Assembly (NCBI GenBank): GCA_028716485.1
Contig: JAQUPS010000003.1
Location: forward strand, 715-64,714
Direction of reading: 5' to 3'
Source of the DNA: Patescibacteria group bacterium
GTDB taxonomy: Bacteria; Patescibacteriota; Patescibacteriia; Patescibacteriales; WJLG01
DNA: 64,000 bases
The position numbers and the translations under genes are program-made. Positions 685 to 29,334 of this stretch are shown here, piece by piece. Under the pieces are notes generated by a model. It made no database searches and had not been told where the DNA came from. It saw only the letters and a program-made list of their open reading frames with translations. Position 1 is the first letter of the stretch, and every line of letters starts with the position of its first letter.

Positions 685-755
685 CTCGGGGACTTGGATT
701 CGAACCAAGATAAACAGGTCCAGAACCTGTTGTCCTACCATTGGACGATCCCCGA
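685..755 (-). tRNA. tRNA-Gln (anticodon CUG)
   Basis: Hand-folded cloverleaf: acceptor TCGGGGA/TCCCCGA, D-stem GTCC/GGAC, anticodon stem ACAGG/CCTGT with loop TTCTGGA, 4-nt variable loop, T-arm CTTGG-TTCGAAT-CCAAG, discriminator G. U1-A72 is as in bacterial tRNA-Gln. CCA is not encoded. Confidence 0.85.
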
Positions 756-2566: not shown

Positions 2567-2572
2567 ATTTTA

Positions 2573-2774
2573 TTTTGTCATCCTGAGCTGACGCCGCAGG
2601 CGGCGAGCGAAGGATCTATTTTGAAGAGCCTGGTCAATTTTAAGTATTTATTTTTTAAATTATCGTTAATTTATTCAAAACATTCGTTCTAATTCGTGAT
2701 GATTTGAAAAAAACCGCATCGGAAAATAGATCCTTCGTCATCCCGCGAGGCGGGATTCCTCAGGATGACAAAAA
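2573..2774. repeat. MITE-like double-hairpin element E1 (termini TTTTGTCATCCTGAG..CGAAGGATCT / AGATCCTTCG..CTCAGGATGACAAAAA)
   Basis: Terminal inverted repeats, each itself an imperfect GC-rich hairpin, flank an AT-rich core. The core segment CATTCGTTCTAATTCGTGATGATTTGAAAAAAACCGCATCGGAAAA is shared with E2 (reverse orientation) and partly with E3. Confidence 0.75.
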
Positions 2775-2809
2775 TTTTTTATTCTTTCTTCTTTCTTATT
2801 TCTTAATTC

Positions 2810-3763: not shown

Positions 3764-3780
3764 ATTTTTGTTTTTATTTT

Positions 3781-3808
3781 CACCCAAAGGGTGATCACCC
3801 CTTGGGTG
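3781..3808. promoter_or_regulatory. 28-nt near-perfect palindrome upstream of the acidic-protein gene (possible operator)
   Basis: CACCCAAAGGGTGATCACCCCTTGGGTG is symmetric at 26 of 28 positions around TGATCA. It lies 18-45 nt upstream of the ATG at 3763. Confidence 0.35.
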
Positions 3809-3843
3809 AAATTTTTATATTTATTTCTACCTTTATACTATAT

Positions 3844-3869
3844 TAAAAAAGCCCTTTGTTCAAGGGCTT
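3844..3869 (-). terminator. Rho-independent terminator-like hairpin
   Basis: Minus strand reads AAGCCCT-TGAACAA-AGGGCTT followed by TTTTTT. Confidence 0.5.
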
Positions 3870-3886
3870 GCTTATAATTCCCGACC

Positions 3887-4074
3887 TTTTGTCATCCTGA
3901 GGAGCGAGCCGCCTCGGCAAGCGACGAAGGATCTGTTTTCCGATGCGGTTTTTCCAAATCATCAAGAATCAGAACGAACATTTTGAATTTAACGGCTCGA
4001 TAAAAATTTTCCTCGCAGAATTGGCTCGGCATACTAAATAGATCCTTCGCGCGGCGCTCAGGATGACAAAAAAA
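3887..4074. repeat. MITE-like double-hairpin element E2 (inverted relative to E1)
   Basis: It has the same termini as E1. Its reverse complement aligns with the right two-thirds of E1 (...TTCGTTCTGATTCTTGATGATTTGGAAAAACCGCATCGGAAAACAGATCCTTCG...). Confidence 0.75.
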
Positions 4075-4083
4075 TAAATGACT

Positions 4084-4121
4084 AAAAAAAGAGCCGGGAA
4101 CGATTTGTTCGTTCTCGGCTC
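4084..4121 (-). terminator. Rho-independent terminator of the beta-propeller gene
   Basis: 13-bp stem GAGCCGAGAACGA/TCGTTCCCGGCTC (one mismatch) followed by TTTTTTT on the minus strand, 23 nt after the stop at 4144. Confidence 0.7.
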
Positions 4122-4143
4122 ATCTTGTTTCGGCAATCGCTTT

Positions 4144-6219
4144 TTAGCGAAGCCGGTTAGTGTTAAGGTTCATGTTTTTCGCCATTGTTCCGTTCGACAG
4201 ACGGACGATACTTAGTCCGCAAGCCACCCGGTTGGCGTTGGCGATTCTCCGGCCCATTATGTCGTAGGAAATAACATTCTGGGCGGAAAATTTTTGCAAA
4301 GGCGTTTTCATTGCCGGTTTAAGCGCTGGCTTGACCGAAGTTAAATTACTCCGATGCCAGACAGTCAAACCGCCGGCCGTCCCAAACCAAACCGCATTTG
4401 TAGCCGAATCTACGTAAACACAATGCGCGTAATCATCGGCGATAGTGTGGCCGACTGAAGTCCGCAACGGTACAGCTTGCCAAAGATTGATTGGATCTTT
4501 ATAGTAAACTCCGCTATCAGTACAAACCCAAACGGTAGTATGCAGATCAACATAAATACTGTTAATCTTTCGGTCAGCGTAAGGCCAAGACGAAGTAGTG
4601 AATGATGAATTGACGTTAATATATTTAACGTCGGATTTACCATCTTGATACCCGGCATCAGCCACCCAAACCGCGCCATCAACCATAATATCGCCTGCCA
4701 CCTGCCTGGTCGCTGAATACTGGAGTTTCTTATACGTCCAATTCCCGTGAAAATCATATGAATACAGAGAGCTGTCCGTACCAATCCATAGCCGCTTGCC
4801 GGTTGAACTGACGGAAAGAATCTTCTCTTTCGCCAATTGCGACGGAAAGTCCATTTTGTTCGCCCAAGAACCACTCCCAGCATACGACGCAATCAAAACA
4901 GGAACTGCGCAAACTAGCCAAACATTCTTTCCGCTGTCGCCTACCAGCCAATATGGATGATTAAGCGGCCCATCGATAATACCAATACCAAACGCCGAAT
5001 CGCCTTTCTCAATATGATCGTTCTTGCCCAACCACAACGCCCCGTTCTTATCCACGAAAGAAGTGTTAACCGCGCCGTAGATATTTTCAGCACTACTATT
5101 GAGAGATGGGGCATCTGAACCAACATCATAACGATATCCGTCGCTGGCACCGCCGACTAATATCCGACCGGTGTTAGCAGTATTAATAAGTGTTATGTTG
5201 TTGTCGTGGGGATAATGAATTCCCGTAACCGACATCTGGCTAAAATTTGCTCCGTCATAAACCCACATTTTATTATTGGTTCCTACATAGAGCTTTTCGC
5301 CATCTGTCGCCAGACAATTTATCAACCCACCAAACGCTTCTAACTCGGAAGGTGTTAACGATTCGTTTTCGGAAGAAGGCATTGATTGCTTCCAGCCGGA
5401 AAAAGGATTTATACTACAATACCAAAGGTCACCATCTCTCTGCCCGACATAATATCGGCCTTTGAAATAAGCAACCGCGCCAGCATTGTTCTGCGGCATA
5501 GCAGGATCATAGGCAATAACCGTAAAAGAAGATGCGGTGCCAGAAAGGAAAACGTAAATTCCCGTTTCTCCTGAGGCCACCACCGTATCGCCCCAAACTG
5601 AAATATTCAGCGGCGAACCGGCAATCAATTGATCGCCAACTTTCCAGAATGTCTCATGACCGGCAGTGTCTAAATAGAAAATTCCCTGCGACCAAGTTCC
5701 CCAGATTGTGCCATCGTTACCGGCAGCAATCCGATAGACATCGTGCGTTAAGGGAATTTTTTCCCACATTCCGCCGCCATTCAAATACAAACCGTCGGTC
5801 AAGGCCGCGTAAACGCCTTTTTGCGTAATTGCTAAGTCGTAACCGATGCTTGAACGGTCCGGAGTTTTTTTGACCATCCTATCTTGCCAACTCTTATATT
5901 CAGTCGGCAACCAAGACAGCCAATTATAACCCATGGCAAAAATGTATCCGTCCGGCCTGACCGCAATTGAATAAACATCGTTAGCCGGTAAATTATTGCT
6001 AACGGTGGTTTGAATCTGCCACGGCAAACTTTCGCCGGGAAGATTCGTGCCATCTTTGCTAAAGACCTCTATCCCGCCGTTCGTAGCGGTATAGATCTTG
6101 TTGCCGACGATGGAGATGTCATTGACGACATTGTCGTAAATGGCGCTCCGCCATTCGGCGGCAAAAACGGAAACAACGGAAAACAAAACGACAGACAAAA
6201 TACCGATAAGCTTTTTCAT
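4144..6219 (-). CDS. Secreted beta-propeller protein with Reg_prop-like repeats and a T9SS-type-looking C-terminal tail
   Basis: Signal peptide MKKLIGILSVVLFSVVSVFA. Recurrent 'W.GT..G...' blades (VWFGTAGGLTVW, LWIGTDSSLYSY, VWVCTDSGVYYK, LYVGTNNKMWVY). Strong SD AAAGGAGG before the ATG. C-terminal tail: VISYDIMGRRIANANRVACGLSIVRLSNGTMAKNMNL. Confidence 0.7.
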   Translation of the reverse strand: MKKLIGILSVVLFSVVSVFAAEWRSAIYDNVVNDISIVGNKIYTATNGGIEVFSKDGTNLPGESLPWQIQTTVSNNLPANDVYSIAVRPDGYIFAMGYNWLSWLPTEYKSWQDRMVKKTPDRSSIGYDLAITQKGVYAALTDGLYLNGGGMWEKIPLTHDVYRIAAGNDGTIWGTWSQGIFYLDTAGHETFWKVGDQLIAGSPLNISVWGDTVVASGETGIYVFLSGTASSFTVIAYDPAMPQNNAGAVAYFKGRYYVGQRDGDLWYCSINPFSGWKQSMPSSENESLTPSELEAFGGLINCLATDGEKLYVGTNNKMWVYDGANFSQMSVTGIHYPHDNNITLINTANTGRILVGGASDGYRYDVGSDAPSLNSSAENIYGAVNTSFVDKNGALWLGKNDHIEKGDSAFGIGIIDGPLNHPYWLVGDSGKNVWLVCAVPVLIASYAGSGSWANKMDFPSQLAKEKILSVSSTGKRLWIGTDSSLYSYDFHGNWTYKKLQYSATRQVAGDIMVDGAVWVADAGYQDGKSDVKYINVNSSFTTSSWPYADRKINSIYVDLHTTVWVCTDSGVYYKDPINLWQAVPLRTSVGHTIADDYAHCVYVDSATNAVWFGTAGGLTVWHRSNLTSVKPALKPAMKTPLQKFSAQNVISYDIMGRRIANANRVACGLSIVRLSNGTMAKNMNLNTNRLR

Positions 6220-6290
6220 GGCTTATCCTCCTTTTAGTTAGGGTTTAATTGAATTGTCAAACAACTTTCTGGATTCATAATTGTGCTAAA

Positions 6291-6319
6291 ATATTAGCAT
6301 AGCTTATTATTTTTGTCAA
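6291..6319 (-). promoter_or_regulatory. Sigma70-type promoter for the beta-propeller gene
   Basis: Minus strand: TTGACA (6319..6314), 17-nt spacer, TAATAT (6296..6291), about 70 nt upstream of the ATG at 6219. Confidence 0.55.
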
Positions 6320-6409
6320 TCTTTGCCAATAAAAAATCGCCAAAATTGGCTAATTTTTAATAAACTTAATTAGTAAATCCAATTACTTTTTTTAAATTGA
6401 TATTAGACC

Positions 6410-9244
6410 CTATTCCGCCGATATGCGATGAAAATATTCTTCGGTAAAACTCGGGTCAATATTATTTTTGTAAAAATTAATCACATAATCAACCTTGCTT
6501 TTCAAGATCGGATATTGGCTGACGGTATTCCAAAAATCTTTAAGCGCATTGGTCTTGTCAATCTTAAACATATTCTGGGCTATCGTAGAAAAATCTTCAT
6601 CTTCATTGGCTCGGCAATAATAAGTCAAAAATCCGGCCTTCCATAATTCAACGGAAGTGTAATCACTATCATTAGCAACAACTTCCGACCTAATGCTGTT
6701 ATCATAAGAAAGTCCGCCGGTATTTAAACGATCTAAATCCTCTTGATAAAAATTTACGGTGTAATGAAGGCTCTTGATAATATTGTGGGCGATTTCGTGA
6801 TGTATACCCTGTTCAAAACGATCTGAATCTGAATTATAAGCCACAAAAATTTTCACGTTCCAGGGATCGGCCATGCCGCCGACATTTACGCCCTTTTCGT
6901 ATACATTATTTAAGATATAAATTTTGTATATAAACTTTTTTAAGACTTCGAGCGGATATTTATCCAGAGCCTTCTTCACAATCGCCAAGCTCGCATCAAC
7001 CCTATCTTCAGACAAATTCGTTCCGCTAACATCCCGAGTCGGCTGATCGGCAACTCCGGCCGGATTCAAATGGGCACTATTATTGTTATCTTTCGACCAG
7101 GTAATCTCAACACCGCGATATTTTATACATTTATCGGGGATGGCGCACGTCGTACTTTCCGATACCGGCGCGACCGGCGTTACTGGCTTATTGACCGGAC
7201 TGCCGGAAGTAACCGGCGCTGATAATTTGTCGCCAACTCCAATTTTATTAATATTACTATCGGTTATTCCTAATCCAAGATTTTTCAGAACATTCAAGGC
7301 ATTTGCGGGATTGCCAAGAAAATATCTTCTATTATTGCTCGGGTTTACATACCAAGCCTCCCCTTTTGATTGAACTTGCAGTAAAATTTTTCCTCTTTGT
7401 TTGACGGCAAAGGCCGTATTTAATTTTAATTTTCCCGCGCCGTTGGGATTATAGCCGTTTTGCAATTCGGTTTTGTCGGAATACCCATCTTTATCGGAAT
7501 CTTGCGCGACATTCATTGCCCCCAAACTATCCACGGCTACCGGAATTTTATTGATGTCAGTATTGGTAATGCCAACTCCCCGGCTAATAATGACGTTCTT
7601 AATATTGGACAAGTTTAAAGAATATTTTTTATAAGTTTTCGGGTCGACATACCAAGCGGCTCCGCCGGATTGCACTTGCAATAAAATTTTTCCGCTCAAT
7701 CTTTTTGATAAATTTAAATCAATATTATTCGAAAGTGTATTCTGTTTGGGAGTAATAATAACTACTTTATCACCCTGGCTATTCTGGCTTGTACTAGACA
7801 GAGGGTTAACTGCCTCGGGGGTTGTATTAAACGATGGCTTGGCCGCCTCAGAAATTGATTGATTCGTTCGCGGATTAACGGTAATTGTTTTTGTACTGGG
7901 AGAAAGATCCGTTCCTCCGATATAGGCTTGGATTACGTATTTTTTGGCAGGATTAAATTGAAATGCGAAATCCCAAGTTTTGGTTTCATTTAGCTTGAGC
8001 GGACTTCCGGCGATAGATGAGCCGATGGGAATATTAAAATGCTTATCTTGTTTAGAAACAAGATTGCCGCTAGTACTGTTTTCATAAATCAAAATTCCGT
8101 ATGTATAATCATAAATATCATAAACACCGGTATTTTTAACTATCTCGCTCACGCCAGCCGACGAAGTTGTGATATCAGTAATAGCCATCGAGTTAGTGCC
8201 AGATACGTTGGCCGTAGTGAATTCGCCGATATCGGATTTAGTCTCCTGGGTAAAATTGTAAGTGGAATCTATATAATATTGGTAAGTTGTAGCCTGTTTC
8301 AAATTTGGAATTGTCGTTGAATGATCAACCGCAAAGCCAGGCTCACCCGCTTGAGCCCAATTCGTTGATCCCTTTTCCGCATACTTAACAATGCTGTCCG
8401 TATTCTTGCTTGTTTTCCAACTGATGATAGCGCTATTTGATCTGATTGTCTCTGCGGGGATAGTAATGCCACTTATTACATTAGGTAATGAGTCATCAAG
8501 AATCGTAAGCTTCTTCTCGAAAGTATTATCAGTCTCATTTGATTCGGCAATAACATTATCACTATCAATAGTGACAACTAAGTCATAAGTACCAGGGTCC
8601 AGGACAAAACTTATTCTTTGCCTGTAGGGTTGAGTCACATCAAAATACTTGGTAAGGCCGCTAATTTTATCATATACCTTTATCTTGTATGGCGAAGGAA
8701 AATAATTACAAATGTCCGAAAAAACTTGATCGCCGGAATAATTAATATCAACTTTATCTTGTTTTTCATTGTCATAATTTAGCGAAACATCATCAATTTT
8801 TAAATTAGTCAAGGGGCAATTCGATGACGGATACACGAAGTGAGCAAGCCCGGTAATATTGAAATTATTGCTTTCAGTCCCACTGCTGCCAGCACCATAT
8901 GCTTCAAGATAAATCGTATAGCTGCCAGTGACTAAATCCGATGGGGTTTTCCAGCTATACGAACCGGTGGGACTATTAATATCCTCCGTATTACTAGTGA
9001 TAAAGATGGAATTGCCGTGTTTATAGCTAAGTCTGACCCCGCTGACATTAGACTGATTCCATTTAATCGTCACTGTGTCGCCAGCGTTAAAGGTTTCCCC
9101 TCCGGCCGGAAATGTTATAGAAGCGCTGGGTATGGCGTTTATGTCAAAAGCTGAAACATTTACCGGACAAAAAATCGCCAATAAAAATATAAAACTGAAA
9201 AAAAGCATCAACCCACGCTTATTGACAAAATCCTGTTTTTGCAT
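6410..9244 (-). CDS. Large secreted multidomain surface protein with C-terminal HExxH (putative Zn-metallopeptidase-like) domain
   Basis: 944 aa with an N-terminal signal/TM. It has an Ig-like module (ITFPAGGETFNAGDTVTIKWN), CARDB-like NETDNTFEK and an FN3-like segment. It has two copies of the GKILLQVQS.G.AWYV...GLGITxxxINKI module (about 7240..7400 and 7540..7700). A Ca-binding-like DSDKDGYSDKTELQNGYNP segment and a C-terminal IHHEIAHNI motif follow. Confidence 0.75.
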   Translation of the reverse strand: MQKQDFVNKRGLMLFFSFIFLLAIFCPVNVSAFDINAIPSASITFPAGGETFNAGDTVTIKWNQSNVSGVRLSYKHGNSIFITSNTEDINSPTGSYSWKTPSDLVTGSYTIYLEAYGAGSSGTESNNFNITGLAHFVYPSSNCPLTNLKIDDVSLNYDNEKQDKVDINYSGDQVFSDICNYFPSPYKIKVYDKISGLTKYFDVTQPYRQRISFVLDPGTYDLVVTIDSDNVIAESNETDNTFEKKLTILDDSLPNVISGITIPAETIRSNSAIISWKTSKNTDSIVKYAEKGSTNWAQAGEPGFAVDHSTTIPNLKQATTYQYYIDSTYNFTQETKSDIGEFTTANVSGTNSMAITDITTSSAGVSEIVKNTGVYDIYDYTYGILIYENSTSGNLVSKQDKHFNIPIGSSIAGSPLKLNETKTWDFAFQFNPAKKYVIQAYIGGTDLSPSTKTITVNPRTNQSISEAAKPSFNTTPEAVNPLSSTSQNSQGDKVVIITPKQNTLSNNIDLNLSKRLSGKILLQVQSGGAAWYVDPKTYKKYSLNLSNIKNVIISRGVGITNTDINKIPVAVDSLGAMNVAQDSDKDGYSDKTELQNGYNPNGAGKLKLNTAFAVKQRGKILLQVQSKGEAWYVNPSNNRRYFLGNPANALNVLKNLGLGITDSNINKIGVGDKLSAPVTSGSPVNKPVTPVAPVSESTTCAIPDKCIKYRGVEITWSKDNNNSAHLNPAGVADQPTRDVSGTNLSEDRVDASLAIVKKALDKYPLEVLKKFIYKIYILNNVYEKGVNVGGMADPWNVKIFVAYNSDSDRFEQGIHHEIAHNIIKSLHYTVNFYQEDLDRLNTGGLSYDNSIRSEVVANDSDYTSVELWKAGFLTYYCRANEDEDFSTIAQNMFKIDKTNALKDFWNTVSQYPILKSKVDYVINFYKNNIDPSFTEEYFHRISAE

Positions 9245-9267
9245 AAAAGTTATATTTAAAAAATTAA

Positions 9268-11793
9268 TTAAAATAATGTCAGCCGCTTGTTGATTTCCGC
9301 TTCAATCAAGGCGCGGTCGCGGCCGTATTTCAGGCGACTCAGAGTTTTTATTTTATCGACAATCTCCGGACGTTCTAGGCCGGCCGGCGGCCAGATTGTT
9401 TTCATCGAGAATGGGCGCGAGGCGGTATTGTCGATTAATAATTTTACGTAGGCGGTGTAAGCTTCGATATTTATCAAATCATATTCGTTGAAAACCGGGG
9501 AATATTCTTTGGCCAGAACTTCAGCGTCTTCCGAGCCGATTTTGAAAGTGAACCAAGAGCCGACATTGCCGAACACGGCCGAGCGGATCGCCTCGCCTTC
9601 CTTGCCCAGCTGGCCGAGATATTGATGAGCGATGATCAGATTCAAACCGTATTTGCGGGCTTCGGATAAAATAGTGTTGATAGAGTCAGTGGTGAAATTC
9701 TGGAATTCGTCGATGTATAAATAAAAATCTTTGCGCGCGGTGTCCGGCATATCGGCGCGGGAAAGCGCAGCCATTAAAATTTTGCCGACAATTATCAAAC
9801 CGAGCAGATAAGCGTTCATATCGCCGATTTTTCCTTTGGACAAATCAACCAAAAGGATTTTCTGTTTGTCCATCACGTCGCGCAGATTGAACGAGCTTTT
9901 TTGCTGGCCGATGATCGGGCGCATCGTGTCGTTGGAAACGAATTGAGTCAGCTTGGAAGTGATATAAGGCACGATGTTGGCCAGCGCCGCTTCGCCGCCG
10001 GCTTTTTCCGCCTGCTTCTGCCAAAAATCCACCACCGTAATATCCGAACAATTTTTTAATTTTATCTGGCGGAAATCCGGATCGGACAAAACCCGCGGCA
10101 CCTCCATTAAGGTCGAACCGGATTCCGTGTGCGCCATAATCAAAAGCAAAGCGTTGCGCATATACTGCTCGAACATCGGGCCGCCGGTGGTTTTTAGATC
10201 ATATAATTTATCAAAAATCTTGATCAGTTCGTTGATGACGAAAGTTTTCTGCTCCGGATAACGCTCGTCGAATTCGATTAAGTTCAAACCCATCGGCCGC
10301 TCGATATCGGCCGGTGAAAACAAGATCACGTCTTCGGCGCGTTCCGGCGGAATCCTTTTCATGATATCCTCGATCAGATCACCGTGCGGATCCATCACAC
10401 AGACGCCTTCGCCGTTTAAAATATCCTGGATCGCCAAGCTGGCGATGAATTTTGACTTGCCCGTGCCGGACTTGCCGATGACATAGCAATGGCGGCGGCG
10501 GTCGGCGCGCTTAATGCGGATTTCTTTATCAACGCCGCGATAAACATTTTTCCCCAAAACAATTCCTTCGCTGGGAATATTAGATGGCGCCGGCGCCTGC
10601 CGCGCGGTGAGCCAGGCGATATTCGGCGTTTCCAGATTTTTCAGCGGAAAATGATAAATGCTGTCCAACTCTTCGGTGTTCAAGAGAAAACCAATTCCTT
10701 CGTCAAAACGGCGATAGATAAAATCGTGGATGACGCCGCTATTGAACTGATAATTTTTTTGCTGGAAAATATTACCGTATTCGTAATAATTATATTCGGC
10801 AAAGGCGTTGGCCATATTCAGAAGATAGGCTTTGCCGTTGTGTTCGTTTTTCGTACTGACCACGATGCGGATATTAACATCCAATCCGGCTTTGGAATTC
10901 TTGTCTTCCATATTTTTAAGCATCTCCTCCTCCATCGCTGATAATTTTTTCGGTTCTTTGGCTTCTTTTTCCCGCTCGCTTTTCGGCTTAGCCTCTTTGG
11001 CCACGCTGCCTAAAAATGCCATGGTTTTATTGAACGCCCCGTTGCCGACAGCTTCGCCGACTTTCTTGCCGCGATTTACTTCCCGAACCACGGAAGAAAT
11101 TTTCCGATGCCAGGAAGATTTCGCGCTGCGGACTAACACCTGCAAAGCCATTGATTCGTCTTTTTCCAATTTGCTCATCACGTTGACGAGCGAATTCATC
11201 GGATCGATTTCCATTTTATTGTAAGTGCGGATGGGAAAAACGAAACTTTTTTTCGTCTTGATTACGCTCGCGAAAACTTTAGCGCCCGGGTTGAAAATAT
11301 TATAGTCAGGAACCTCCTCAACCAGCGCGTCCGGAAAATTGGCATGGATCTGCTGTTCGATATAGCGCGCCATTTCCGCCGGCGTGACTACGTAAAAATA
11401 AATTTTCTTGTCAGTGGCGACGATTTCAAAAGAAAAATGATCGGCTCGGCCGAACAGCCAAGCCTTCAAGCCTCTTTGCGCCCGCGAGCCTCCGATACTG
11501 TTGAAAATCGCCTCGCCAACCGCGATCTGTTCGCGCAAATCCTGCACGGTCGGTTCTTTGTTTTCCTCGCCCGGCTTTTCCTTGGGCAGGCGAACCATAA
11601 AAACCGTCTGGGTAAGATATTGATTGCGCGCGAAATAGCCGCGCAAAATCCGCAGTGCGATCAAAACAATAATCAAAAAAACAACCGCGATCGCGGCATA
11701 AAAAACGATCAAAGACCAGTCGATCGCGGAATTTATCGACGACGCGGGAAAAATATTAGTATAATCGATGCCGTAATTCATATTTTTTGTCAT
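9268..11793 (-). CDS. VirD4/TraD/TraG-like (type IV coupling protein family) P-loop ATPase with N-terminal TM anchor
   Basis: Walker A VIGKSGTGKS, Walker B FYLYIDEFQNF, IIAHQYLGQL...VFGNVG block, one N-terminal TM. The first ATG (11793) lies inside the terminus of repeat E3, so the alternative start at 11781 (MNYGIDY) is at least as likely. Confidence 0.7.
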   Translation of the reverse strand: MTKNMNYGIDYTNIFPASSINSAIDWSLIVFYAAIAVVFLIIVLIALRILRGYFARNQYLTQTVFMVRLPKEKPGEENKEPTVQDLREQIAVGEAIFNSIGGSRAQRGLKAWLFGRADHFSFEIVATDKKIYFYVVTPAEMARYIEQQIHANFPDALVEEVPDYNIFNPGAKVFASVIKTKKSFVFPIRTYNKMEIDPMNSLVNVMSKLEKDESMALQVLVRSAKSSWHRKISSVVREVNRGKKVGEAVGNGAFNKTMAFLGSVAKEAKPKSEREKEAKEPKKLSAMEEEMLKNMEDKNSKAGLDVNIRIVVSTKNEHNGKAYLLNMANAFAEYNYYEYGNIFQQKNYQFNSGVIHDFIYRRFDEGIGFLLNTEELDSIYHFPLKNLETPNIAWLTARQAPAPSNIPSEGIVLGKNVYRGVDKEIRIKRADRRRHCYVIGKSGTGKSKFIASLAIQDILNGEGVCVMDPHGDLIEDIMKRIPPERAEDVILFSPADIERPMGLNLIEFDERYPEQKTFVINELIKIFDKLYDLKTTGGPMFEQYMRNALLLIMAHTESGSTLMEVPRVLSDPDFRQIKLKNCSDITVVDFWQKQAEKAGGEAALANIVPYITSKLTQFVSNDTMRPIIGQQKSSFNLRDVMDKQKILLVDLSKGKIGDMNAYLLGLIIVGKILMAALSRADMPDTARKDFYLYIDEFQNFTTDSINTILSEARKYGLNLIIAHQYLGQLGKEGEAIRSAVFGNVGSWFTFKIGSEDAEVLAKEYSPVFNEYDLINIEAYTAYVKLLIDNTASRPFSMKTIWPPAGLERPEIVDKIKTLSRLKYGRDRALIEAEINKRLTLF

Positions 11794-11972
11794 CCTGAGC
11801 CGTCCGCTCCGAGCGGATGGCGAAGGATCTATATTGGTAGCATAGCATTATCTTTTGAAAATATTTCCAAAACATTGTCGGTAAATTTTAAATATTCGTT
11901 CTAATCCGTGAGTAATGCATTAAAATGGTTTACAATCACAGATCCTTCGCCAGGGGCTCAGGATGACAAATA
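11785..11972. repeat. MITE-like double-hairpin element E3
   Basis: TTTTTTGTCATCCTGAGCCGTCCGCTCCGAGCGGATGGCGAAGGATCT ... AGATCCTTCGCCAGGGGCTCAGGATGACAAA. The core contains ATTCGTTCTAATCCGTGA, as in E1. The element fills the whole spacer between 11977 (stop) and the start of the next gene. Confidence 0.75.
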
Positions 11973-11976
11973 GTTA

Positions 11977-12447
11977 TTAATTTTTCTTTTTTAATTTAAT
12001 AATTTCGTCCGCTTTAATTTTGGCTTCCTGCTCCAAAAAAAATTTATTGACTCCGGGGAGCCGCGCCAGCCATTTTCTGATCAAATCGACGATCTTGCCG
12101 ATATTTATTTTGGTTTTCTCCAAGAGTTTGTTGATTTTTTTGGCAGTCTCTTCCCCTTCCCGGCGGAATTCCGCCTGCTTTTCAAGCGGCAAACCCAAAT
12201 AAATTTCTTCCAAATCGCGCGCCAAAAAATTCTCGATCTGCTTTTCCCGCTCTTCGTATTCCGAAATCACGCTTTTAATCGGCCGCGCCGGCGTGATGAC
12301 CGCGGCGCCCGGCCTCTCGATCGCTTTTTCCGCCGGCTTCTCTGTTTTTTCAACGCCAAATTCCGGCCGCTCATTCAGAGCGCCGGCCTCGGTTTCGATT
12401 TTCTTCGGCGCTTCAATATTCGCGCCAATCTTTAATTCGCCGGGCAT
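11977..12447 (-). CDS. Hypothetical coiled-coil/charged protein
   Basis: 156-aa ORF, K/E-rich, with no recognisable motif. It lies on the same strand immediately upstream of the VirD4-like gene. Confidence 0.5.
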   Translation of the reverse strand: MPGELKIGANIEAPKKIETEAGALNERPEFGVEKTEKPAEKAIERPGAAVITPARPIKSVISEYEEREKQIENFLARDLEEIYLGLPLEKQAEFRREGEETAKKINKLLEKTKINIGKIVDLIRKWLARLPGVNKFFLEQEAKIKADEIIKLKKKN

Positions 12448-12570
12448 AAATGAAGCCTGTTAATCTTGATTAATTATAGCACGAAAAACAGTAAGTTTAA
12501 ATTGTCATCTGCGAAAAATGCGATTCCGCCCGTAAACAATATGGCAATTTGGCAATTTAACCATCTGAAA

Positions 12571-12599
12571 TTTCAAACTGAATAAATTTGTGCTACAAT
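12571..12599 (+). promoter_or_regulatory. Putative extended -10 promoter of corA
   Basis: TGcTACAAT (12591..12599) with a weak -35 TTTCAA 17 nt upstream, followed by SD AAGGAG (12614..12619) and the ATG at 12623. Confidence 0.4.
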
Positions 12600-12622
12600 A
12601 TAATCATAACGACAAGGAGAAC

Positions 12623-13591
12623 ATGCCAGACTACAAAAAAATATCCAACAACATCCAGCAGCTGACGATTGCCGGAGCCGGAGGCGAAAAGATCAAATGG
12701 CTGAACATCGCCAATCCTGGCAAGGACGAGCTGTCTTTTTTGCGCAAGATCAAGATTTATGATTTTGATTTCAAGCAGCTACGCGCCTCCTCGGCGAAAA
12801 TCACCGCCCAGCGTCCGATTTTCGAACAGCGGGAAAAATATTTTTTCCTGATTTTGCAATTTCCGGTTTTGCGCAACGGCGAAATCATCCCGGCCGAAAT
12901 CGATTTTTTCATCAGCCACGGATTGTTGGTAACCCTGCACGCCAACAACCAGCCGGCGCTCAACGATTTTTTCAATACGGCCAAAAAAGACGATTCGGTT
13001 TTGATGGCCAAAAAGATGCCCTCGGCGGCCATCTTGCTCTGCGAACTGTTTTCCAAGCTTATTTATCACTGTTATGATTTGATGGATAAAAATAGCGAGA
13101 GAATAAACGAGATCGAAAAAATAATTTTCGCCAACCAGCAGAAAAAAGCGGCATCGGCCATTCTGGAATTGCGGCGCAACATCATCGGCATCCGGCGCAT
13201 CATGCAAAGCCACAAAAATATTTTAAAAAAAATAACCCACACCAAAAGCAAGGTGATCTCTTCCGCGAAATTAAATCATTACTACTACGAATTAATCGAT
13301 CATACCAAAAGAATCTGGGAACTTTCCGAAAATCAGAAAGAAGCGGTCGAGGCGCTCAACGACACCAACGAATCCCTGCTCAACGACAAGATAAGCAATA
13401 TCATGAAAACGCTGACCATCTTTTCGGTGATCGTTTTTCCCCTGACGCTGTTCGCCGCCATCTTCGGGATGAACACTACCGACGGCATGCCATTTCTCGA
13501 TAACCCTAACGGTTTCTGGATCGTCTTGAGCTTTATGGGCGTCGGCTGCCTGGGGATGATCTTCTTCTTCGTCAGGAAAAAATGGCTCTGA
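12623..13591 (+). CDS. corA: CorA-family magnesium/cobalt transporter
   Basis: C-terminal two TMs with the GMN motif (AAIFGMNTTDGMPF). ATG at 12623 (MPDYKK) is preceded by AAGGAG; the track start at 12590 is a non-ATG extension. Confidence 0.85.
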   Translation: MPDYKKISNNIQQLTIAGAGGEKIKWLNIANPGKDELSFLRKIKIYDFDFKQLRASSAKITAQRPIFEQREKYFFLILQFPVLRNGEIIPAEIDFFISHGLLVTLHANNQPALNDFFNTAKKDDSVLMAKKMPSAAILLCELFSKLIYHCYDLMDKNSERINEIEKIIFANQQKKAASAILELRRNIIGIRRIMQSHKNILKKITHTKSKVISSAKLNHYYYELIDHTKRIWELSENQKEAVEALNDTNESLLNDKISNIMKTLTIFSVIVFPLTLFAAIFGMNTTDGMPFLDNPNGFWIVLSFMGVGCLGMIFFFVRKKWL

Positions 13592-13641
13592 ATCAATTAA
13601 AAATTACAAATTAAGAATTAAGAATCATTTTTAAAATAAAA

Positions 13642-13676
13642 AGGAGGCGCTTTATTCAATGCGCCTCTTTCGTTTT
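13642..13676. terminator. Bidirectional terminator between convergent genes
   Basis: GAGGCGC-TTTATTCAAT-GCGCCTC is flanked by an A-run upstream and TTTCGTTTT downstream. Confidence 0.6.
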
Positions 13677-14088
13677 AGGCTATCAGCCCGGGATATTTCT
13701 CGAAAAATTCCGCCTCTCTTTTCCTCATTTTTTTTATCTCCCTAAGCTGCGAGAGGAACAAATGGATCCAAAAGAGAAAACTACCGGCATAATCTTTTTT
13801 TCCAAACAAGACTTCATATTTTTCCAGCAGTTCATCCTCCACCGCCGGGGCGATGATCAAGAGAATATCCTTGGCGATTAGCGACGACCAAGAAAGATCT
13901 CCGGTATTTTTTCCGTCCTCGAACTCTCGCTCGATAATCTGGAAAAGTTTTCCCCGGTCAAACGACATAAGAAAGTTCGGGGGAAATTTTCCGATTATCT
14001 CCCTGATAGTGCTGCCCTCCCTAATCAGGGCCAATAAATCCGGCCACCAGGCCATGTTTTCGGGATCAATTCCCGGAACAACTCTCAT
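13675..14088 (-). CDS. Hypothetical protein
   Basis: 137-aa ORF with no recognisable motif. Its codon usage resembles its neighbours. Confidence 0.45.
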   Translation of the reverse strand: MRVVPGIDPENMAWWPDLLALIREGSTIREIIGKFPPNFLMSFDRGKLFQIIEREFEDGKNTGDLSWSSLIAKDILLIIAPAVEDELLEKYEVLFGKKDYAGSFLFWIHLFLSQLREIKKMRKREAEFFEKYPGLIA

Positions 14089-14114
14089 AAATCCTCCTTT
14101 GAAAAGGTACGAAA

Positions 14115-15155
14115 TTATTTTAACAATTTCTTTATATCCGCCAAGGTTTCAACTTTAACCAATTCTTTCCGCATTTCCGCCGCGTCAGGCATTCCCTTTA
14201 CATACCAGCACAAATGTTTGCGCATTTCAAGTATCCCCCGCTTGCCCTTCAATTTTTCCATCAATTTGGCGTGCTCGTAAGCAATTTTAAAAACAATCCC
14301 CTCCTCGGGAGGGGTGGCTCGCGCCGCGCGAGACGGGGAGGGTATATTATTAATTCCTTTTTTACTTGTCCTCCGAAGCTTTAGCGAAGGAGGATTTTTT
14401 ATTTCCTCAAAGATTTGCGGGTGCCCGCAAGACCCTTGCGCGATGCCGACGCCGTCCGCGTTGGTTTTTTTAAGCATGATTTCCGCGTCTTCCGGAGTAT
14501 TTATTCCGCCATTGGCAATAATAACTCCGGAAAAAATTTTCTTCAGCCGATTAATCGCTCCGTAATCAATCTCGCCGGCAAAGCCTTGCGCCAAAGTCCG
14601 ACCGTGAACCATAATCGCCGCGATATCCAGTCCTTTCATCTTTTCCACAAAGTCAAAAATACTAATTCCCCTCTTGGGAGGGGTGGATCCGCCCCTGGCG
14701 GAGACGGGGTGGGTCGATATGCGCGCTTTAACCGAGACCGGCAACTTGGTATTTTTTAAAACCGCTTCCAAAACCCGCCGCGATTGCTCCAAATCCTTGA
14801 ACAAAGCTGTGCCGGCGCCCGACTTTACTATTTTAGCCACCGGACAGCCGAAATTAATATCAATCCCGTCCGGCTTGATTTTCTGCTCGACTATCTTTAC
14901 GGCTTTGGCGAAATGTTCCGGATTATTACCGAAAAGCTGGACGACAAATTTCGCCCCGCCATTTTTTTTGTAAGAGTCCAAAAGTCCGCTAGTCCGCTCG
15001 CTGTCAAAAAACAAACCGGCGGCCGAAACCATCTCGCTGTAAACAACATCCGCGCCGAACTTGCCGCACAAATACCGAAAAGCCGCGTCGGTTATTCCCG
15101 CCATCGGCGCTAAACAAAAAATAGGCTTTTTCAATTTTTGCCAAAAATTACCCAT
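14115..15155 (-). CDS. dus: tRNA-dihydrouridine synthase (Dus family) carrying two repeat-derived insertions
   Basis: LAPMAGITDAAFR, INFGCP, HGRT and the GNGGI-like IANGGI blocks of the Dus TIM barrel. The patches STHPVSARGGSTPPKRG and PPSLKLRRTSKKGINNIPSPSRAARATPPEEG coincide with DNA repeats. Confidence 0.85.
   Translation of the reverse strand: MGNFWQKLKKPIFCLAPMAGITDAAFRYLCGKFGADVVYSEMVSAAGLFFDSERTSGLLDSYKKNGGAKFVVQLFGNNPEHFAKAVKIVEQKIKPDGIDINFGCPVAKIVKSGAGTALFKDLEQSRRVLEAVLKNTKLPVSVKARISTHPVSARGGSTPPKRGISIFDFVEKMKGLDIAAIMVHGRTLAQGFAGEIDYGAINRLKKIFSGVIIANGGINTPEDAEIMLKKTNADGVGIAQGSCGHPQIFEEIKNPPSLKLRRTSKKGINNIPSPSRAARATPPEEGIVFKIAYEHAKLMEKLKGKRGILEMRKHLCWYVKGMPDAAEMRKELVKVETLADIKKLLK
14297..14394. 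repeat. GC-rich hairpin repeats (family B module plus family A module) in-frame inside dus
   Basis: TCCCCTCCTCGGGAGGGGTGGCTCGCGCCGCGCGAGACGGGGAGGGT, then ACTTGTCCTCCGAAGCTTTAGCGAAGGAGGA. Both modules recur elsewhere in the window. Confidence 0.7.
14666..14717. repeat. GC-rich hairpin repeat (family B) in-frame inside dus
   Basis: TTCCCCTCTTGGGAGGGGTGGATCCGCCCCTGGCGGAGACGGGGTGGGTCGA, with hairpins CCCCTC-TTGG-GAGGGG and CCGCC-CCT-GGCGG. Near-identical modules occur at 33374..33462. Confidence 0.7.
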
Positions 15156-15161
15156 ACTTCA

Positions 15162-15312
15162 TTTGTCATCCCGAGCAGAGGCCGCCGCGGCCGCAGTCGA
15201 GGGATCCCTTTTATCTACGATAACGCCATTATGCAAAATAAAAGCGATTCCTCCCTGCCTACCGGCAGGCAGGCGCTTCGCGCGAGGCGCGCTTCGGTCG
15301 GAATGACAAGTT
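15162..15312. repeat. Variant MITE-like hairpin element E4
   Basis: The left end is TTTGTCATCCCGAGC...GTCGAGGGATC and the right end is ...GCTTCGGTCGGAATGACAAG. It begins 7 nt upstream of the dus start codon. Confidence 0.6.
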
Positions 15313-15451
15313 TGTGTGACAAGTTTGTGTTGACTTATATCATAGATAAATATAACATTATTGTAAATGATGGGGCGGCTGATCGAACCTTAACAAAAAA
15401 CCAACCAAACGCCGGCAGTGCGCCGGAATTCTTCAGTGCGAAGGAGAAAAT

Positions 15452-15874
15452 ATGGAAACGGAAACTGAAACAATCAGACGGATAAAAGCCTATTATCTGC
15501 ATGAGTTGCCTTATTTTACCAAAGTAAAATTGGGCACGAAAAGGATTGATAATGTAAAATTTGATGAATCCAAATTCGTTATCAGGTATGACCTGAATCA
15601 CCATCACCTTTCACACTCGAAATACCTTACATTAGGCGATATGTGCGGGTTTAACCAAAAATTCCGGCAGGAATTATATCATATCGGCAACCTCCCCGAT
15701 TTCTCTAACGATAAATTCGTAATAATCGCTTTTATCGAAATGAGCTGTCGAAACCATCAGGGAATTTTTTGCGCGATTGCCAGGGACGTCGATGCTCTCG
15801 GAACTTTTAATGATATTTCTTGCTCTGGCACGACTTTATGGCTTTATTGGCCGGAGGAATTGGAAAAAGTGTAA
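15452..15874 (+). CDS. Hypothetical protein
   Basis: 140-aa ORF with an ATG start and no recognisable motif. Confidence 0.45.
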   Translation: METETETIRRIKAYYLHELPYFTKVKLGTKRIDNVKFDESKFVIRYDLNHHHLSHSKYLTLGDMCGFNQKFRQELYHIGNLPDFSNDKFVIIAFIEMSCRNHQGIFCAIARDVDALGTFNDISCSGTTLWLYWPEELEKV

Positions 15875-15912
15875 AATAAAAAACAGCTGGCCGCCCCATC
15901 TGTTTTTTTATT

Positions 15913-15935
15913 TTTTGTCATCCTGGATGACAAAA
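15913..15935. repeat. Minimal palindrome made only of the element termini (TTTTGTCATCC-T-GGATGACAAAA); probable bidirectional terminator
   Basis: Perfect 11-bp arms with a 1-nt spacer, flanked by T-runs and A-runs, lying between convergent genes (15874 and 15939). Confidence 0.6.
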
Positions 15936-15938
15936 ATA

Positions 15939-16838
15939 TTAGACTTTTTTCTTATCCTTGGAAATTTCCATCGCGCTGGTGAGCTGCTGCATCAAGTCCG
16001 AAGTCTTGTTGACGTTTGTGTCGAGAAAGATGACTTTGCTATTATCAGCCGTGCCGATAGTTTTCAAAGTGTCCAGATATTGGGTTAAAGTTAACAAGGC
16101 TAAAATTTCCGAAGACGATTGGTTGGTCGAGCCGCGGACAATATCGATCGATTCTTTCAAGCCCTTGGCAATCGCCTCGCGTTCCATGGCAATGCCTTCA
16201 CCCTGCAAACGTTTGCGTTCTCTTTCTCCTTCCGCTTCCTTGACGGCCTGAATTTTTGTTGCCTCGCCTTTGTTCATGGCTGCTTTTTTCAGCTGCTCGC
16301 TCGCCACCACTTCGGACATCGCCTGCGTGATGGTCGCCGGAAAACTGACGCCGGTAATCTGAAAACTGTAAATAATCATCCCCCATTCGGAAAATTGCTT
16401 TTCCATATCGCCGCGGATATGCGCCGCCAATTCCTCTTTCTTTTCCAAAATCCCCTCATGCGTTTCTTTGGCGATATAAGTGCGCAAAGAATTCTCGACC
16501 ACCGCGCCGATCGATTGCGCGCGATTTGTCAAAGAATAAACGTATTTTTTCACGCCGTCCAAGGCGCTGTCCACGGAAAAAATCAAGTTAGTGGAAACAT
16601 CGATGATGACTTTATCATTGGACGGATAAAGCCCCTTGATGGCAAAATTCTGCTGTCTTAAAGAAACGTTTTCTGCTACGCGTTCCAATAACGGAATTTT
16701 ATAATTCAATCCCGCGACCATCGTCCGGCGGAATTTTCCCAAGAATTCGATCACCAAAACCGTATTCTGTCCGACGATCCTGATGCCGAAAAGAAAAATC
16801 AGCGCGATAAATCCCAAAATAATCCAAAAAATTTCCAT
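15939..16838 (-). CDS. SPFH/band-7 (stomatin/prohibitin-like) membrane protein
   Basis: N-terminal TM, then IVGQNTVLVIEFLGKFRRTMVAGLNYKIPLLERV, typical of the SPFH domain, with a coiled-coil tail. Confidence 0.85.
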   Translation of the reverse strand: MEIFWIILGFIALIFLFGIRIVGQNTVLVIEFLGKFRRTMVAGLNYKIPLLERVAENVSLRQQNFAIKGLYPSNDKVIIDVSTNLIFSVDSALDGVKKYVYSLTNRAQSIGAVVENSLRTYIAKETHEGILEKKEELAAHIRGDMEKQFSEWGMIIYSFQITGVSFPATITQAMSEVVASEQLKKAAMNKGEATKIQAVKEAEGERERKRLQGEGIAMEREAIAKGLKESIDIVRGSTNQSSSEILALLTLTQYLDTLKTIGTADNSKVIFLDTNVNKTSDLMQQLTSAMEISKDKKKV

Positions 16839-16952
16839 AAAATTATTGCTAAATTAATTAATTATGATTTGATATTAGCATAATTTCGGTAAAATTAAAA
16901 GAGCCGGCAATCTTGCCAACAAAAAATCTCCCACATTAGCGATTTATATATT

Positions 16953-17142
16953 CTTGTCATCCTGAGCCCCTGGCGAAGGATCTATTAGCTGAGAGATAAA
17001 TTTAAAATATTATAAAATATCAGAAAGATTGTTTGGTGAAAAAGCTATCAATAAAAAATTTGGTCACTTAAATCCCGATTTCCTGCAAAATAGATCCTTC
17101 GTCGTTCGCCGAGGCGGCTCGCTCCTCAGGATGACAAAAAAA
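16953..17142. repeat. MITE-like double-hairpin element E5
   Basis: The left end CTTGTCATCCTGAGCCCCTGGCGAAGGATCT equals the reverse complement of the right end of E3. The right end AGATCCTTCGTCGTTCGCCGAGGCGGCTCGCTCCTCAGGATGACAAAAA nearly equals the E2 hairpin. Confidence 0.75.
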
Positions 17143-17168
17143 GACGGCAATTCTTATATTTTCACTTC

Positions 17169-18581
17169 TTACTTCTTGCTTACTTTCATCCCCTCTTTCG
17201 TATCTTCGACAGAAAAACCTTTGGCTTCGATTTCGGCGCGCAAGCGGTCGGACTCGGGCCAATTTTTTTCCGCGCGGGCTTTTTTTCTTTGCTCAATCAA
17301 GGAAATAACTTCGACAGGGATTTCTTCTTTATTATTTAAAGTTCTTTCAAAATCCAAACCAAGCACTCGGTCAAAATCTAATAATGTTGCAAGTTTATCT
17401 TCCGACGATATATTTAATTTTATTACTTCCTGCAAAACCGATAAGGCACCGGGAGTATTAAAATCATCGTTGACGAATGTGGAAAATTTATCTTTATATT
17501 CGACGTTCACCGCGCCCTTTTTATCACCCAGCTCTTTTATCTTGTGATAGATACCGCTTAAACCGTTCTGCGCGGCTTGCAGGGCTTCCCAAGTGAAATT
17601 TTGCGGCGAACGGTAATTGGCCGACAGAAAATAATAGCGCAAAGCGAGCGGATTAAATTTTTTCTCTTTGAGTTCGGCCAATGTCAGGCTGGTGCCGGAA
17701 GACTTGGCCATTTTTTCTTCGTTAGCCAAAAGATGTTCGTTGTGCAGCCAATAATTCACATATTTCACACCGTTGGCCGCTTCCGATTGGGCAATCTCGT
17801 TGGTGTGATGAACCGGAATATGCTCGATACCACCCATGTGAACATCAAGAGTATTACCTAAATATTTTTTGCTCATCGCCGAACATTCGATATGCCAGCC
17901 GGGAAAACCTTCGCCTGATTTTACCAGCAAAGATTTAAATGGCGATTTCCAAAATTGTAAAGCATTAACATGAATGCCGGCGCGGAAAAACCAGAGCGCG
18001 AAATCGCGGGCATTTTTTTTGGCCGGGTCGCTGACATCGCCGCTCCCCTCCCCGATGATATTTTTTTCCAGATTCTGCCGGGAAAGTTCGGTGTAATTGG
18101 AAAATTTAGAAACGTCAAAATAAATCGCCAGCGGCGTAGCGTAGGCAAAACCTTTTTGCAAAAGCTTTTCTACCATTGTTTGCATTTCTTTGATATGCCG
18201 GGTGGCGCGCGGTTTTTTCCACGGCTCTTTGATGTTCAAATCGGCCGCGTCTTGCTCGTAAATATTGATATATTTTTGAGCGATTTCTTCCGGGGACAAG
18301 CCTTCGCGCTTAGCGCCTTTTTCCATCTTATCTTCGCCAGCGTCTTCATCGGAAGTCAAATGTCCGACATCGGTATAATTTTTTACATATTTGACTTTAT
18401 AGCCGTCATACTCGAAAACGCGGCGGATGATATCGCCCAGCACGGCCGCGCGCAGATTGCCCAGATGCTGAACCCAATAAACCGTCGGCCCGCATTGGTA
18501 AAAAGAAACAATGCCCTTCTTTAAAGGCTTAAATTCTTCTTTTTTTCGCGTCAGAGTATTGTATAAAAATATCTTGTTCAT
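17169..18581 (-). CDS. cysS: Cysteinyl-tRNA synthetase
   Basis: 470 aa with a class I fold. CGPTVYWVQHLGNLR (HIGH-region variant), KMAKSSG (KMSKS), WHIECSAM. Confidence 0.95.
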   Translation of the reverse strand: MNKIFLYNTLTRKKEEFKPLKKGIVSFYQCGPTVYWVQHLGNLRAAVLGDIIRRVFEYDGYKVKYVKNYTDVGHLTSDEDAGEDKMEKGAKREGLSPEEIAQKYINIYEQDAADLNIKEPWKKPRATRHIKEMQTMVEKLLQKGFAYATPLAIYFDVSKFSNYTELSRQNLEKNIIGEGSGDVSDPAKKNARDFALWFFRAGIHVNALQFWKSPFKSLLVKSGEGFPGWHIECSAMSKKYLGNTLDVHMGGIEHIPVHHTNEIAQSEAANGVKYVNYWLHNEHLLANEEKMAKSSGTSLTLAELKEKKFNPLALRYYFLSANYRSPQNFTWEALQAAQNGLSGIYHKIKELGDKKGAVNVEYKDKFSTFVNDDFNTPGALSVLQEVIKLNISSEDKLATLLDFDRVLGLDFERTLNNKEEIPVEVISLIEQRKKARAEKNWPESDRLRAEIEAKGFSVEDTKEGMKVSKK

Positions 18582-24755: not shown

Positions 24756-24765
24756 AATAAACAAC

Positions 24766-26985: not shown

Positions 26986-26996
26986 AAAATACTTTT

Positions 26997-28074: not shown

Positions 28075-28084
28075 AAATAATTTC

Positions 28085-28166: not shown

Positions 28167-28180
28167 TTGTGATTTACCGA

Positions 28181-29298: not shown

Positions 29299-29334
29299 CA
29301 AAAGGAGGATTTTTTATTTCTTACTTCTTACTCA

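Follow-up and report, generated by a model that had tools for sequence, protein, structure and literature searches.

The 64,000-nt stretch of DNA analysed here (the window; positions 715 to 64,714 of contig JAQUPS010000003.1, assembly GCA_028716485.1, Patescibacteria group bacterium) contains a family of hairpin repeats, most of them joined as inverted pairs into elements of about 190 bp. Our analyses suggest that the arms of these elements are probably palindromic repeat units with a CGTC/TGTC tag, of the type targeted by Ssn GIY-YIG nucleases acting on single-stranded DNA (ssDNA), and that they are paired as non-autonomous insertions. An initial annotation had presented the elements as a novel family resembling miniature inverted-repeat transposable elements (MITEs). 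The claim of novelty falls because the arms match a known class of repetitive extragenic palindromic (REP) sequences with a described function. The arms are a member of this class and the dimers a known arrangement of it; novelty lies in the host phylum, the stem variant and the insertion polymorphisms described below. Domain scans of the open reading frames (ORFs) indicated that the genes of the window are typical of a small-genome bacterium.

All six copies proposed in the initial annotation are present where it had placed them, as is a termini-only palindrome (Table 1). The arm motif GTCATCCYGAG, counted with 1 mismatch tolerated, has 11 matches in the window, against 0.80 ± 0.82 in 100 shuffles of the 64-kb sequence, none of which reached 11. 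Every match falls within a reported element, ten at arm termini and one (2737) within the right arm of E1. An eleventh arm, the right arm of E4, has the variant stem GTCATTCCGA, which this motif misses, and was detected by a scan for stems. The inventory comprises five inverted hairpin pairs (E1 to E5), one solo arm and the palindrome, with E1 to E5 and the solo arm confined to the first 30 kb of the window. Element size ranges from 151 to 202 bp, and the ends carry conserved inverted blocks, 15 nt at the outer side and 12 nt at the inner side.

Table 1 Positions and settings of the hairpin elements in the window
Element	Position	Arms, GTC to stem end (strand)	Spacer or structure	Setting
E1, inverted dimer	2573-2774	2577-2615 (+), 2730-2769 (-)	112-nt spacer, 25% GC	hyp325 stop (2810) to dnaX start (2566); left terminus 6 nt off the dnaX ATG
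E2, dimer	3887-4074	3891-3932 (+), 4042-4067 (-)	107-nt spacer, inverse of the E1 spacer	canonical hairpin and T-run terminators on either side, 4091-4121 and 3849-3869, minus strand
E3, dimer	11785-11972	11789-11828 (+), 11942-11967 (-)	111-nt spacer	hyp156 stop (11977) to true trwB-like start (11781)
E4, short-spacer dimer	15162-15312	15165-15205 (+), 15247-15307 (-)	spacer ~40 nt; left arm ATCCC/GGGAT, right arm ATTCC/GGAAT with two inner hairpins	left terminus 6 nt upstream of dus start (15155)
E5, dimer	16953-17142	16956-16981 (+), 17094-17135 (-)	110-nt spacer, unrelated to the others	cysS stop (17169) to Band7 start (16838)
Solo hairpin	29269-29298	29270-29295 (-), forward on the minus (coding) strand	stem ATCCC/GGGAT, inner loop as in E2 right arm	hyp167 stop (29335) to GAPDH start (29197)
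Termini-only palindrome	15913-15937		TTTTTGTCATCCTGGATGACAAAAA	between convergent genes hyp140 and Band7

Each arm is itself a hairpin, as had been proposed, and consists of (T)GTC, ATCCT, a tandem G·A, a variable GC-rich hairpin, AGGAT and C. In all arms this layout folds into a 5-bp stem, a 2x2 GA/GA internal loop (5'-UGAG/5'-CGAA) and the variable inner hairpin. The outer stem covaries, pairing ATCCT with AGGAT in 8 arms, ATCCC with GGGAT in 2 and ATTCC with GGAAT in 1. TGTCAT and the C directly after the stem are present in 11/11 arms. The inner hairpins fall into 8 types among the 11 arms, with stems of 3-10 bp and loops of 3-7 nt. Measured from GTC to C, arms are 26-62 nt long, the longest (>50 nt) being the right arm of E4, and their tails read CTA, CTG, CCC or CGC. 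The palindrome reads TTTTTGTCATCC-T-GGATGACAAAAA and is not a complete hairpin unit because the C after the stem is missing; it is possibly the remnant of a dimer that lost its interior. We dropped the idea that such palindromes are general excision footprints, since minimal palindromes number only 2 in the 3.2 Mb of collected loci.

The arm types are interchangeable between elements, as the initial annotation had noted for two of them. Type I4 is common to the left arm of E2 and the right arm of E5 (3887-3939 and 17087-17139, 94% identical), type I8 to the right arm of E3 and the left arm of E5 (11940-11981 and 16942-16983, 88%), and type D6 to the right arm of E2 and the solo arm (4034-4074 and 29262-29302, 90%). 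The AT-rich core ascribed to E1, E2 and E3 was also confirmed. Their spacers are identical at 54/63 positions between E1 and E2 (E2 inverted), 33/41 between E1 and E3 and 26/33 between E2 and E3, each value exceeding 200 shuffles. E4 and E5 have spacers of other, unrelated sequence. Given that the E1, E2 and E3 spacers are homologous, whole units must have been copied within the genome. Spacers have a GC content of 25-36%, whereas the arms are GC-rich. Folded whole as ssDNA, E3 and E1 favour a four-way cruciform (z = -8.9 and -8.0), in which the two arms are computed to pair with each other through their outer and inner halves.

The oriented tag and stem assign the arms to repeats described in other phyla. 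Di Nocera, De Gregorio and Rocco (2013, BMC Genomics, PMC3733652) defined a superfamily of CGTC-tagged REPs, reported from 5 phyla and including dRS3 of Neisseria and RPE-4/6 of Rickettsia, in which the tag is often TGTC and may also be CCTC, the stem begins with A-T and a short tail follows. These repeats occur mostly as inverted dimers with spacers of 20-100 bp that are often conserved, and some copies are intragenic. The arms described here likewise have the TGTC tag followed by AT...AT in 11/11 cases, a short tail beginning with C, intragenic copies and a predominance of inverted dimers (5 dimers and 1 solo arm). They differ in having a bipartite stem and CTA/CTG tails instead of an 8-9-bp stem, 4-5-nt loop and 3-nt CCA tail, and spacers of 107-112 nt (40 nt in E4).

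The same class has a described partner enzyme. In Neisseria, the 94-aa GIY-YIG nuclease SsnA binds exclusively forward-strand ssDNA of the repeat NTS (CGTCATTCCCGCGMAVGCGGGAATCYRG), which contains dRS3 (Chenal et al. 2025, Nat Commun, PMC11893778). SsnA cuts a few nt upstream of NTS, and the reverse strand, double-stranded DNA and RNA are not substrates. Cleavage is governed by the three nt that precede the palindrome, binding depends most critically on the C that follows it immediately, and the loop is dispensable in identity and can be extended. Homologues of ssn across phyla are flanked by related hairpins called Ssn-related motifs (SRM; PMC11893778). The window arms have the features of NTS and SRM in common, namely an oriented hairpin, a (C/T)GTC tag (TGTCAT in 11/11, which fits the HGTCWY tag), an AT-first palindrome with C directly after it, and tolerance of a variable loop; freely varying inner hairpins on a conserved base fit the finding that loop identity is not essential for SsnA. 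Copies of both are intergenic, clustered and located around genes, and in other contigs small GIY-YIG genes are flanked by the repeats. The published hairpin size of ~20-50 nt agrees with the arms (26-62 nt), the right arm of E4 being longer. The two differ in the stem, which here consists of 5 bp, the G·A pairs and an inner hairpin but is ATTCCCGCG/CGCGGGAAT with a 3-5-nt loop in the published repeats, in the Patescibacteria host, and in the absence of an ssn gene from the window.

We then compared the window with 80 related loci obtained by a search with the TrwB-like protein (one genome per species), whose titles are mostly Patescibacteria, Falkowbacteria or Parcubacteria, some titles of metagenome-assembled genomes being evidently mislabelled. 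The closest locus, L121, has 89% protein identity and 84% nucleotide identity. The gene order (CysS–Dus–CorA)–hyp156–TrwB–(hyp325)–DnaX is conserved across the 80 loci, and syntenic comparison of presence and absence showed E2, E3 and E4/E5 as insertions. At the E3 junction, four relatives (L122, L124, L125 and L127) have only 0-10 nt between the stop of hyp156 and the start of the trwB-like gene. E2 is absent from L121, where both terminators flanking it are conserved, 12 nt apart, and in the window it borders a further insertion of two genes (Pep944 and RegProp691). At the E1 site, L121 has a solo arm only, beside dnaX. In L123, cysS and dus lie 8 nt apart, and 15156-17168 of the window (E5, Band7, the palindrome, hyp140 and E4) is therefore an insertion, in which E4 and E5 bracket ~2 kb with two genes (Band7 and hyp140); no homologue of either gene occurs nearby in any of the 80 loci. 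E1 and E3 are clean insertions with no accompanying gene. Such hairpins are nearly absent from the 1.3 Mb of the relatives, occurring only in L121, L194 and L198, and together with the comparisons of loci this makes the window copies lineage-specific insertions.

The family is not restricted to the window. Over 44 nt, the solo arm of the window has 91% identity with that of L121, and a contig from JGI (L271) has a sister dimer whose arms are 87-98% identical to those of E2 and E5. In a Candidatus Uhrbacteria locus (L198, 7662-7686), a solo hairpin of the same class lies in frame in cysS and adds 12 aa (…NGRSFDSAQDDIQT…); the orthologues in L196, L191, L199 and L197 lack it. Judging from these alignments, insertion takes place in discrete pieces, either a single unit or a dimer, and has reached even operon junctions and coding sequence.

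The way in which the elements fill their spacers also needed refining. The initial annotation held that the copies constitute entire spacers, which is true of E3 and largely of E1, while E2, E4 and E5 occupy 50-60% of theirs. E3 does fill the whole junction between two co-oriented genes, but the gap is 195 nt rather than 183 because homology (MNYG) places the real start of the trwB-like gene at the ATG of 11781-11779, 5 nt from E3; an ATG within GGATGAC yields a spurious in-frame extension of this ORF. In line with the initial annotation, which placed any terminator or promoter of the junction within E3, whatever signals the downstream gene requires must lie in E3 or be read through it. Further, dnaX, the trwB-like gene and dus have their start codons 5-10 nt from the ends of E1, E3 and E4, whose terminal CAGGATGAC places AGGA 11-14 nt upstream of the ATG. 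From its position, this terminal sequence may provide a Shine-Dalgarno-like AGGA that replaces the displaced ribosome-binding site of the three genes.

Hairpins of this type are common elsewhere. In IMG/VR, at least 120 contigs match the hairpin pattern, and among the matches listed the GTCAT ends of dimers point outward in 68 cases versus 25. A metagenome scan found dimers with 100-120-nt spacers in at least 120 contigs, the spacers varying between lineages. We also examined 179 independent hairpins from other contigs, with stems unlike the searched stem and flanks left unconstrained by the search; their flanks were T at -2 (82%), G at -1 (90%), C at +1 (85%) and Y at +2 (90%). Small GIY-YIG ORFs (~95 aa, range 90-105 aa, with PF01541 as the sole domain) are located among hairpins of the window type in L318/L310, L287, L300, L222 and L303, and hairpins lie within 200 nt on both sides in 5/8 GIY-YIG loci. 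Locus L244 (4113-4522) has the arrangement hairpin, 97-aa GIY-YIG ORF, hairpin. In L283 (1420-1585), the 116-nt spacer of a hairpin doublet is a fragment of a GIY-YIG gene (…LVYYEETPNSRAAVARERQL…), and by its sequence this doublet looks like an internal-deletion derivative.

Given these features, we propose that an arm exposed as ssDNA would fold into a hairpin whose base carries the positions read by SsnA, namely the GTC tag, the AT-first stem and the C after it. An Ssn nuclease would bind this hairpin and nick a few nt 5' of it, on the forward strand and in ssDNA only. In the ~190-bp element, an inverted dimer with tagged ends outward and a low-GC spacer between them, each strand would have one forward unit, so that whichever strand becomes single-stranded bears a site, and nicks are predicted just outside each element end. 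The elements would be non-autonomous, the cognate Ssn gene presumably residing elsewhere in the genome or having been lost. They were inserted as discrete pieces into minimal intergenic gaps, either singly (E1, E3) or bordering acquired genes (E2, E4/E5), and the copies would have diverged afterwards with the hairpin kept. We infer that an Ssn enzyme acts on the window copies and, with host repair or recombination, spreads them.

Several observations weigh against this interpretation or limit it. The published SRM expression, HGTCWYN(0-2)YYVSBRHN(0-5)WNVSBRGN(0-2)RNCYNB, has 0 matches on both strands of the window; the arms fit it at the 5' and 3' ends and depart from it in the interior of the stem and in the length of the loop. 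Ssn biochemistry covers enzymes of Neisseria and Wolbachia (PMC11893778), and Patescibacteria are mentioned neither in PMC3733652 nor in the main text of PMC11893778. The GIY-YIG ORFs near hairpins could be placed as PF01541 only, while the Ssn clade is cd10448, and a GIY-YIG ORF was present in 0 of the 120 hairpin-bearing IMG/VR loci listed. NCBIfam has no model for small GIY-YIG proteins. In the 64-kb window, no Ssn-type gene or remnant was detected (best hidden Markov model E = 2.9), and a GIY-YIG profile found no remnant in six-frame translations of the window and of the element spacers. A weak GIY-YIG match in the relative L195 proved to be a YhbQ-type gene, not an Ssn-type one. To our knowledge, movement of DNA has not been demonstrated for any Ssn enzyme, and GIY-YIG nucleases form no covalent intermediate; the spreading mechanism is therefore unproven.

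A stronger version of this proposal, which we put forward tentatively and consider possible rather than probable, is that the hairpin dimers are true non-autonomous transposons of a putative class. A ~95-aa Ssn would nick outside the outward-facing hairpins, and host repair would copy the unit to new sites. Such units would invade operon junctions in ultra-small Patescibacteria genomes and mark the borders of gene uptake from transforming DNA. E3 in a junction of 0-10 nt, the nuclease-remnant spacer of L283 and the in-frame cysS unit of L198 are the hallmarks expected of them. The comparison with MITEs, the label used in the initial annotation, holds in part. The elements are dispersed, small and without coding capacity, have hairpin-armed terminal inverted repeats and show insertion polymorphism (E2, E3, E4/E5 and the L198 cysS unit). 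Their termini, however, are the oriented tag and stem of CGTC/TGTC-tagged REPs (dRS3/NTS/SRM) and not transposase-type inverted repeats, and no flanking direct repeat that could be a target-site duplication was found at any of the five units or at the E2 empty site in L121. Origin by internal deletion, as in MITEs, is suggested by L244 and L283 in other lineages; the window spacers contain no GIY-YIG remnant.

Among the alternatives, the one that survives best, although we regard it as unlikely, is that the elements are recombination scars, left where incoming DNA recombined at hairpin repeats and built mosaics without transposition. This is the model for the NIMEs of Neisseria (dRS3–RS–dRS3; Parkhill 2000; Bentley 2007, PMC1797815), in which dRS3-type repeats bordering variable genes are recombination substrates and the spacers by-products. 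NIMEs were described in 2007 as Neisseria-specific (PMC1797815). The window elements resemble them in their GC-rich repeats around a lower-GC spacer (19-214 bp in NIMEs), the many spacer families, the location beside variable or acquired genes and the GC 'wave'. They also lie at synteny breakpoints, with E4/E5 around Band7 and hyp140, E2 bordering Pep944 and RegProp691, and a different gene in the trwB–hyp325 interval of L121. Their arms are shuffled (those of E5 match the E3-right and E2-left types), their low-GC spacer families are unrelated, as in RS elements, and they lack target-site duplications. Nevertheless, the clean insertion of E3 and E1, the copying of whole units with homologous E1/E2/E3 spacers, and the solo unit in L198 cysS, which has no flanking exchange, speak against it. 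The window units are isolated, not arranged in arrays as NIMEs are, and only the right arm of E4 has the ATTCC...GGAAT of the dRS3 consensus ATTCCCN8GGGAAT.

A variable island separates the trwB-like gene from hyp325 (window 4144-9244, L121 2731-3672). In the window it encodes two large secreted-type proteins, of 944 aa (Ig-like and peptidase domains) and 691 aa (Reg_prop repeats), and in L121 one unrelated 313-aa protein, only the 3' end and the terminator being common to both.

It is quite improbable that the elements owe their conservation to RNA structure, as terminators, hairpins that stabilise or process mRNA, or small RNAs. All window copies are intergenic and would be transcribed, the forward arms fold stably as RNA with the tandem G·A and are followed by CUAUUUU in this genome, the stems covary, and many REPs have been suggested to act as RNA elements (PMC3733652). 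However, Rfam at the gathering threshold matched only a tRNA in the whole window, and a search of 2400-17300 by E-value (maximum E = 5) gave chance-level matches far under the gathering scores. The only sub-threshold overlap was Ysr197 at 2694-2820 over the right arm of E1 (21.7 bits, the gathering score being 167), and no consensus match to the elements, which the initial annotation had suggested seeking, was found. Hammerhead, K-turn and attC readings, considered from the sequence, were dropped, since core nucleotides and spacing misfit and neither of these two Rfam searches matched the elements. Further, any transcript would contain the two arms of a dimer in opposite orientations, and the core of E2 runs inversely to those of E1 and E3. 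Conservation is strongest at the unpaired flanks (TGTC and the C after the stem), the positions recognised by a nuclease that binds ssDNA but not RNA. L121 lacks E2 yet keeps both terminators that flank it, so that the arms are not required as terminators in this genome, and arms outside this genome lack U-tracts. A scan for promoter and terminator consensus was not decisive, with only weak outward ATGACA -35-like matches at the termini and no arm called as a terminator.

Mobilisation by a RAYT (a Y1 transposase of IS200/IS605 type, as for REP/BIME and REPIN sequences) or by a DDE transposase recognising TG...CA termini is very improbable: hairpins in inverted dimers without target-site duplication are also typical of REPINs and BIMEs, and the ends TGTCAT...ATGACA are formally TG...CA, but the tag is (T/C)GTC instead of GTAG, CGTC repeats have not been found to flank a transposase gene, Y1 or other (PMC3733652), the genes between or beside hairpins are GIY-YIG, and the missing target-site duplication speaks against a DDE MITE. 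Y1_Tnp, DDE and other transposase domains were absent from the window ORFs scanned, in agreement with the initial annotation. The REP/BIME and REPIN systems of E. coli and Pseudomonas, in which a single-copy enzyme (the Y1 HUH transposase) reads an ssDNA hairpin and its 5' GTAG tag, are comparable to the arms in that mode of recognition; neither that tag nor that enzyme was found in the window.

Two further families offer partial parallels. Among Rickettsia palindromic elements (RPEs), RPE-4/6 are CGTC repeats and can sit in frame in genes, like the L198 cysS unit, although RPEs are longer single palindromes. The Correia elements (CREE) of Neisseria are also inverted-repeat elements of ~150 bp that separate operon genes and affect expression, but their inverted repeats measure 26-51 bp, they come with a TA duplication, and promoters and RNase III sites have been documented in them. 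A literature search with the stem string GTCATCCTGAG and its complements returned only chance matches to primers.

Assigning the elements to tagged repeats of the Ssn target type has several implications. The partner enzyme of the class was identified only in 2025. The class extends to Patescibacteria (candidate phyla radiation, CPR), which are generally thought to depend on DNA uptake. The very widespread stem variant GTCATCCTGAG...CGAAGGATC, with its tandem G·A and free inner hairpin, escapes the published expression, and published censuses probably undercount the class. The nucleotide-level evidence of insertion bears on the question of mobility of Ssn–hairpin systems. In annotation, the dimers create spurious start codons, as the GGATGAC ATG does for the trwB-like ORF, and small spurious ORFs and breaks in contigs could arise from the hairpin arms as well.

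Other repeats were observed in the window and in related contigs. A second GC-rich palindromic repeat (ATTCCCCTCTTGGGAGGGGTGG, a GC hairpin and GACGGGGTGGG) lies in frame in two conserved genes, at 14296-14343 and 14665-14715 in dus (14115-15155, minus strand) and at 33366-33529 in a U32 peptidase gene (32005-33948, minus strand). It also occurs in L121 (2485-2535 and 4824-4869) and L271 (490-540), and is intergenic in related contigs. It adds 13 aa (STHPVSARGGSTPPKRG) to Dus relative to L123, L124 and L127 and ~35 aa (…PPRLAGLGTPPKRGSGHP…) to the U32 peptidase relative to L122, and its in-frame insertion resembles that of RPEs. In a related Patescibacteria contig (L195, 80-140, minus strand), the YhbQ-type GIY-YIG gene (MYYTYILQSEKDKKFYTGYT…) is split by a small hairpin (CACCCCGTTAAATATGAAATAAATTTAACAGGGTG). 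A large family of hairpin dimers from soil metagenomes (L201, L209, L223, L225, L228, L266 and others) has a common spacer of ~100 nt that is a long imperfect palindrome (TCCCGGAATA…GGCTCTT…AAGAGCC…TATTCCGGGA), with paired positions covarying between copies.

AT-rich repeats (…AAATCTCAAATTTTAAAATTTTAAAATTGAGATTT…) occur in direct and inverted orientation at 24745-24837, 26984-27053, 28075-28176 and 40345-40445, in spacers around the hydrogenase, Nuo51 and GAPDH genes and upstream of a P-type ATPase gene. Copies of an AT-rich palindromic family (AAAATATCCAATATCAAATAACCAATATTTAAA…) lie at 43490-43563, 50431-50534 and 51525-51629, beside polysaccharide deacetylase and ABC-transporter genes, and may be operator-like sites in common. 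Finally, the tRNA gene matched by Rfam (685-755, minus strand, 63.7 bits) is directly downstream of dnaX, a position kept in L122-L124.

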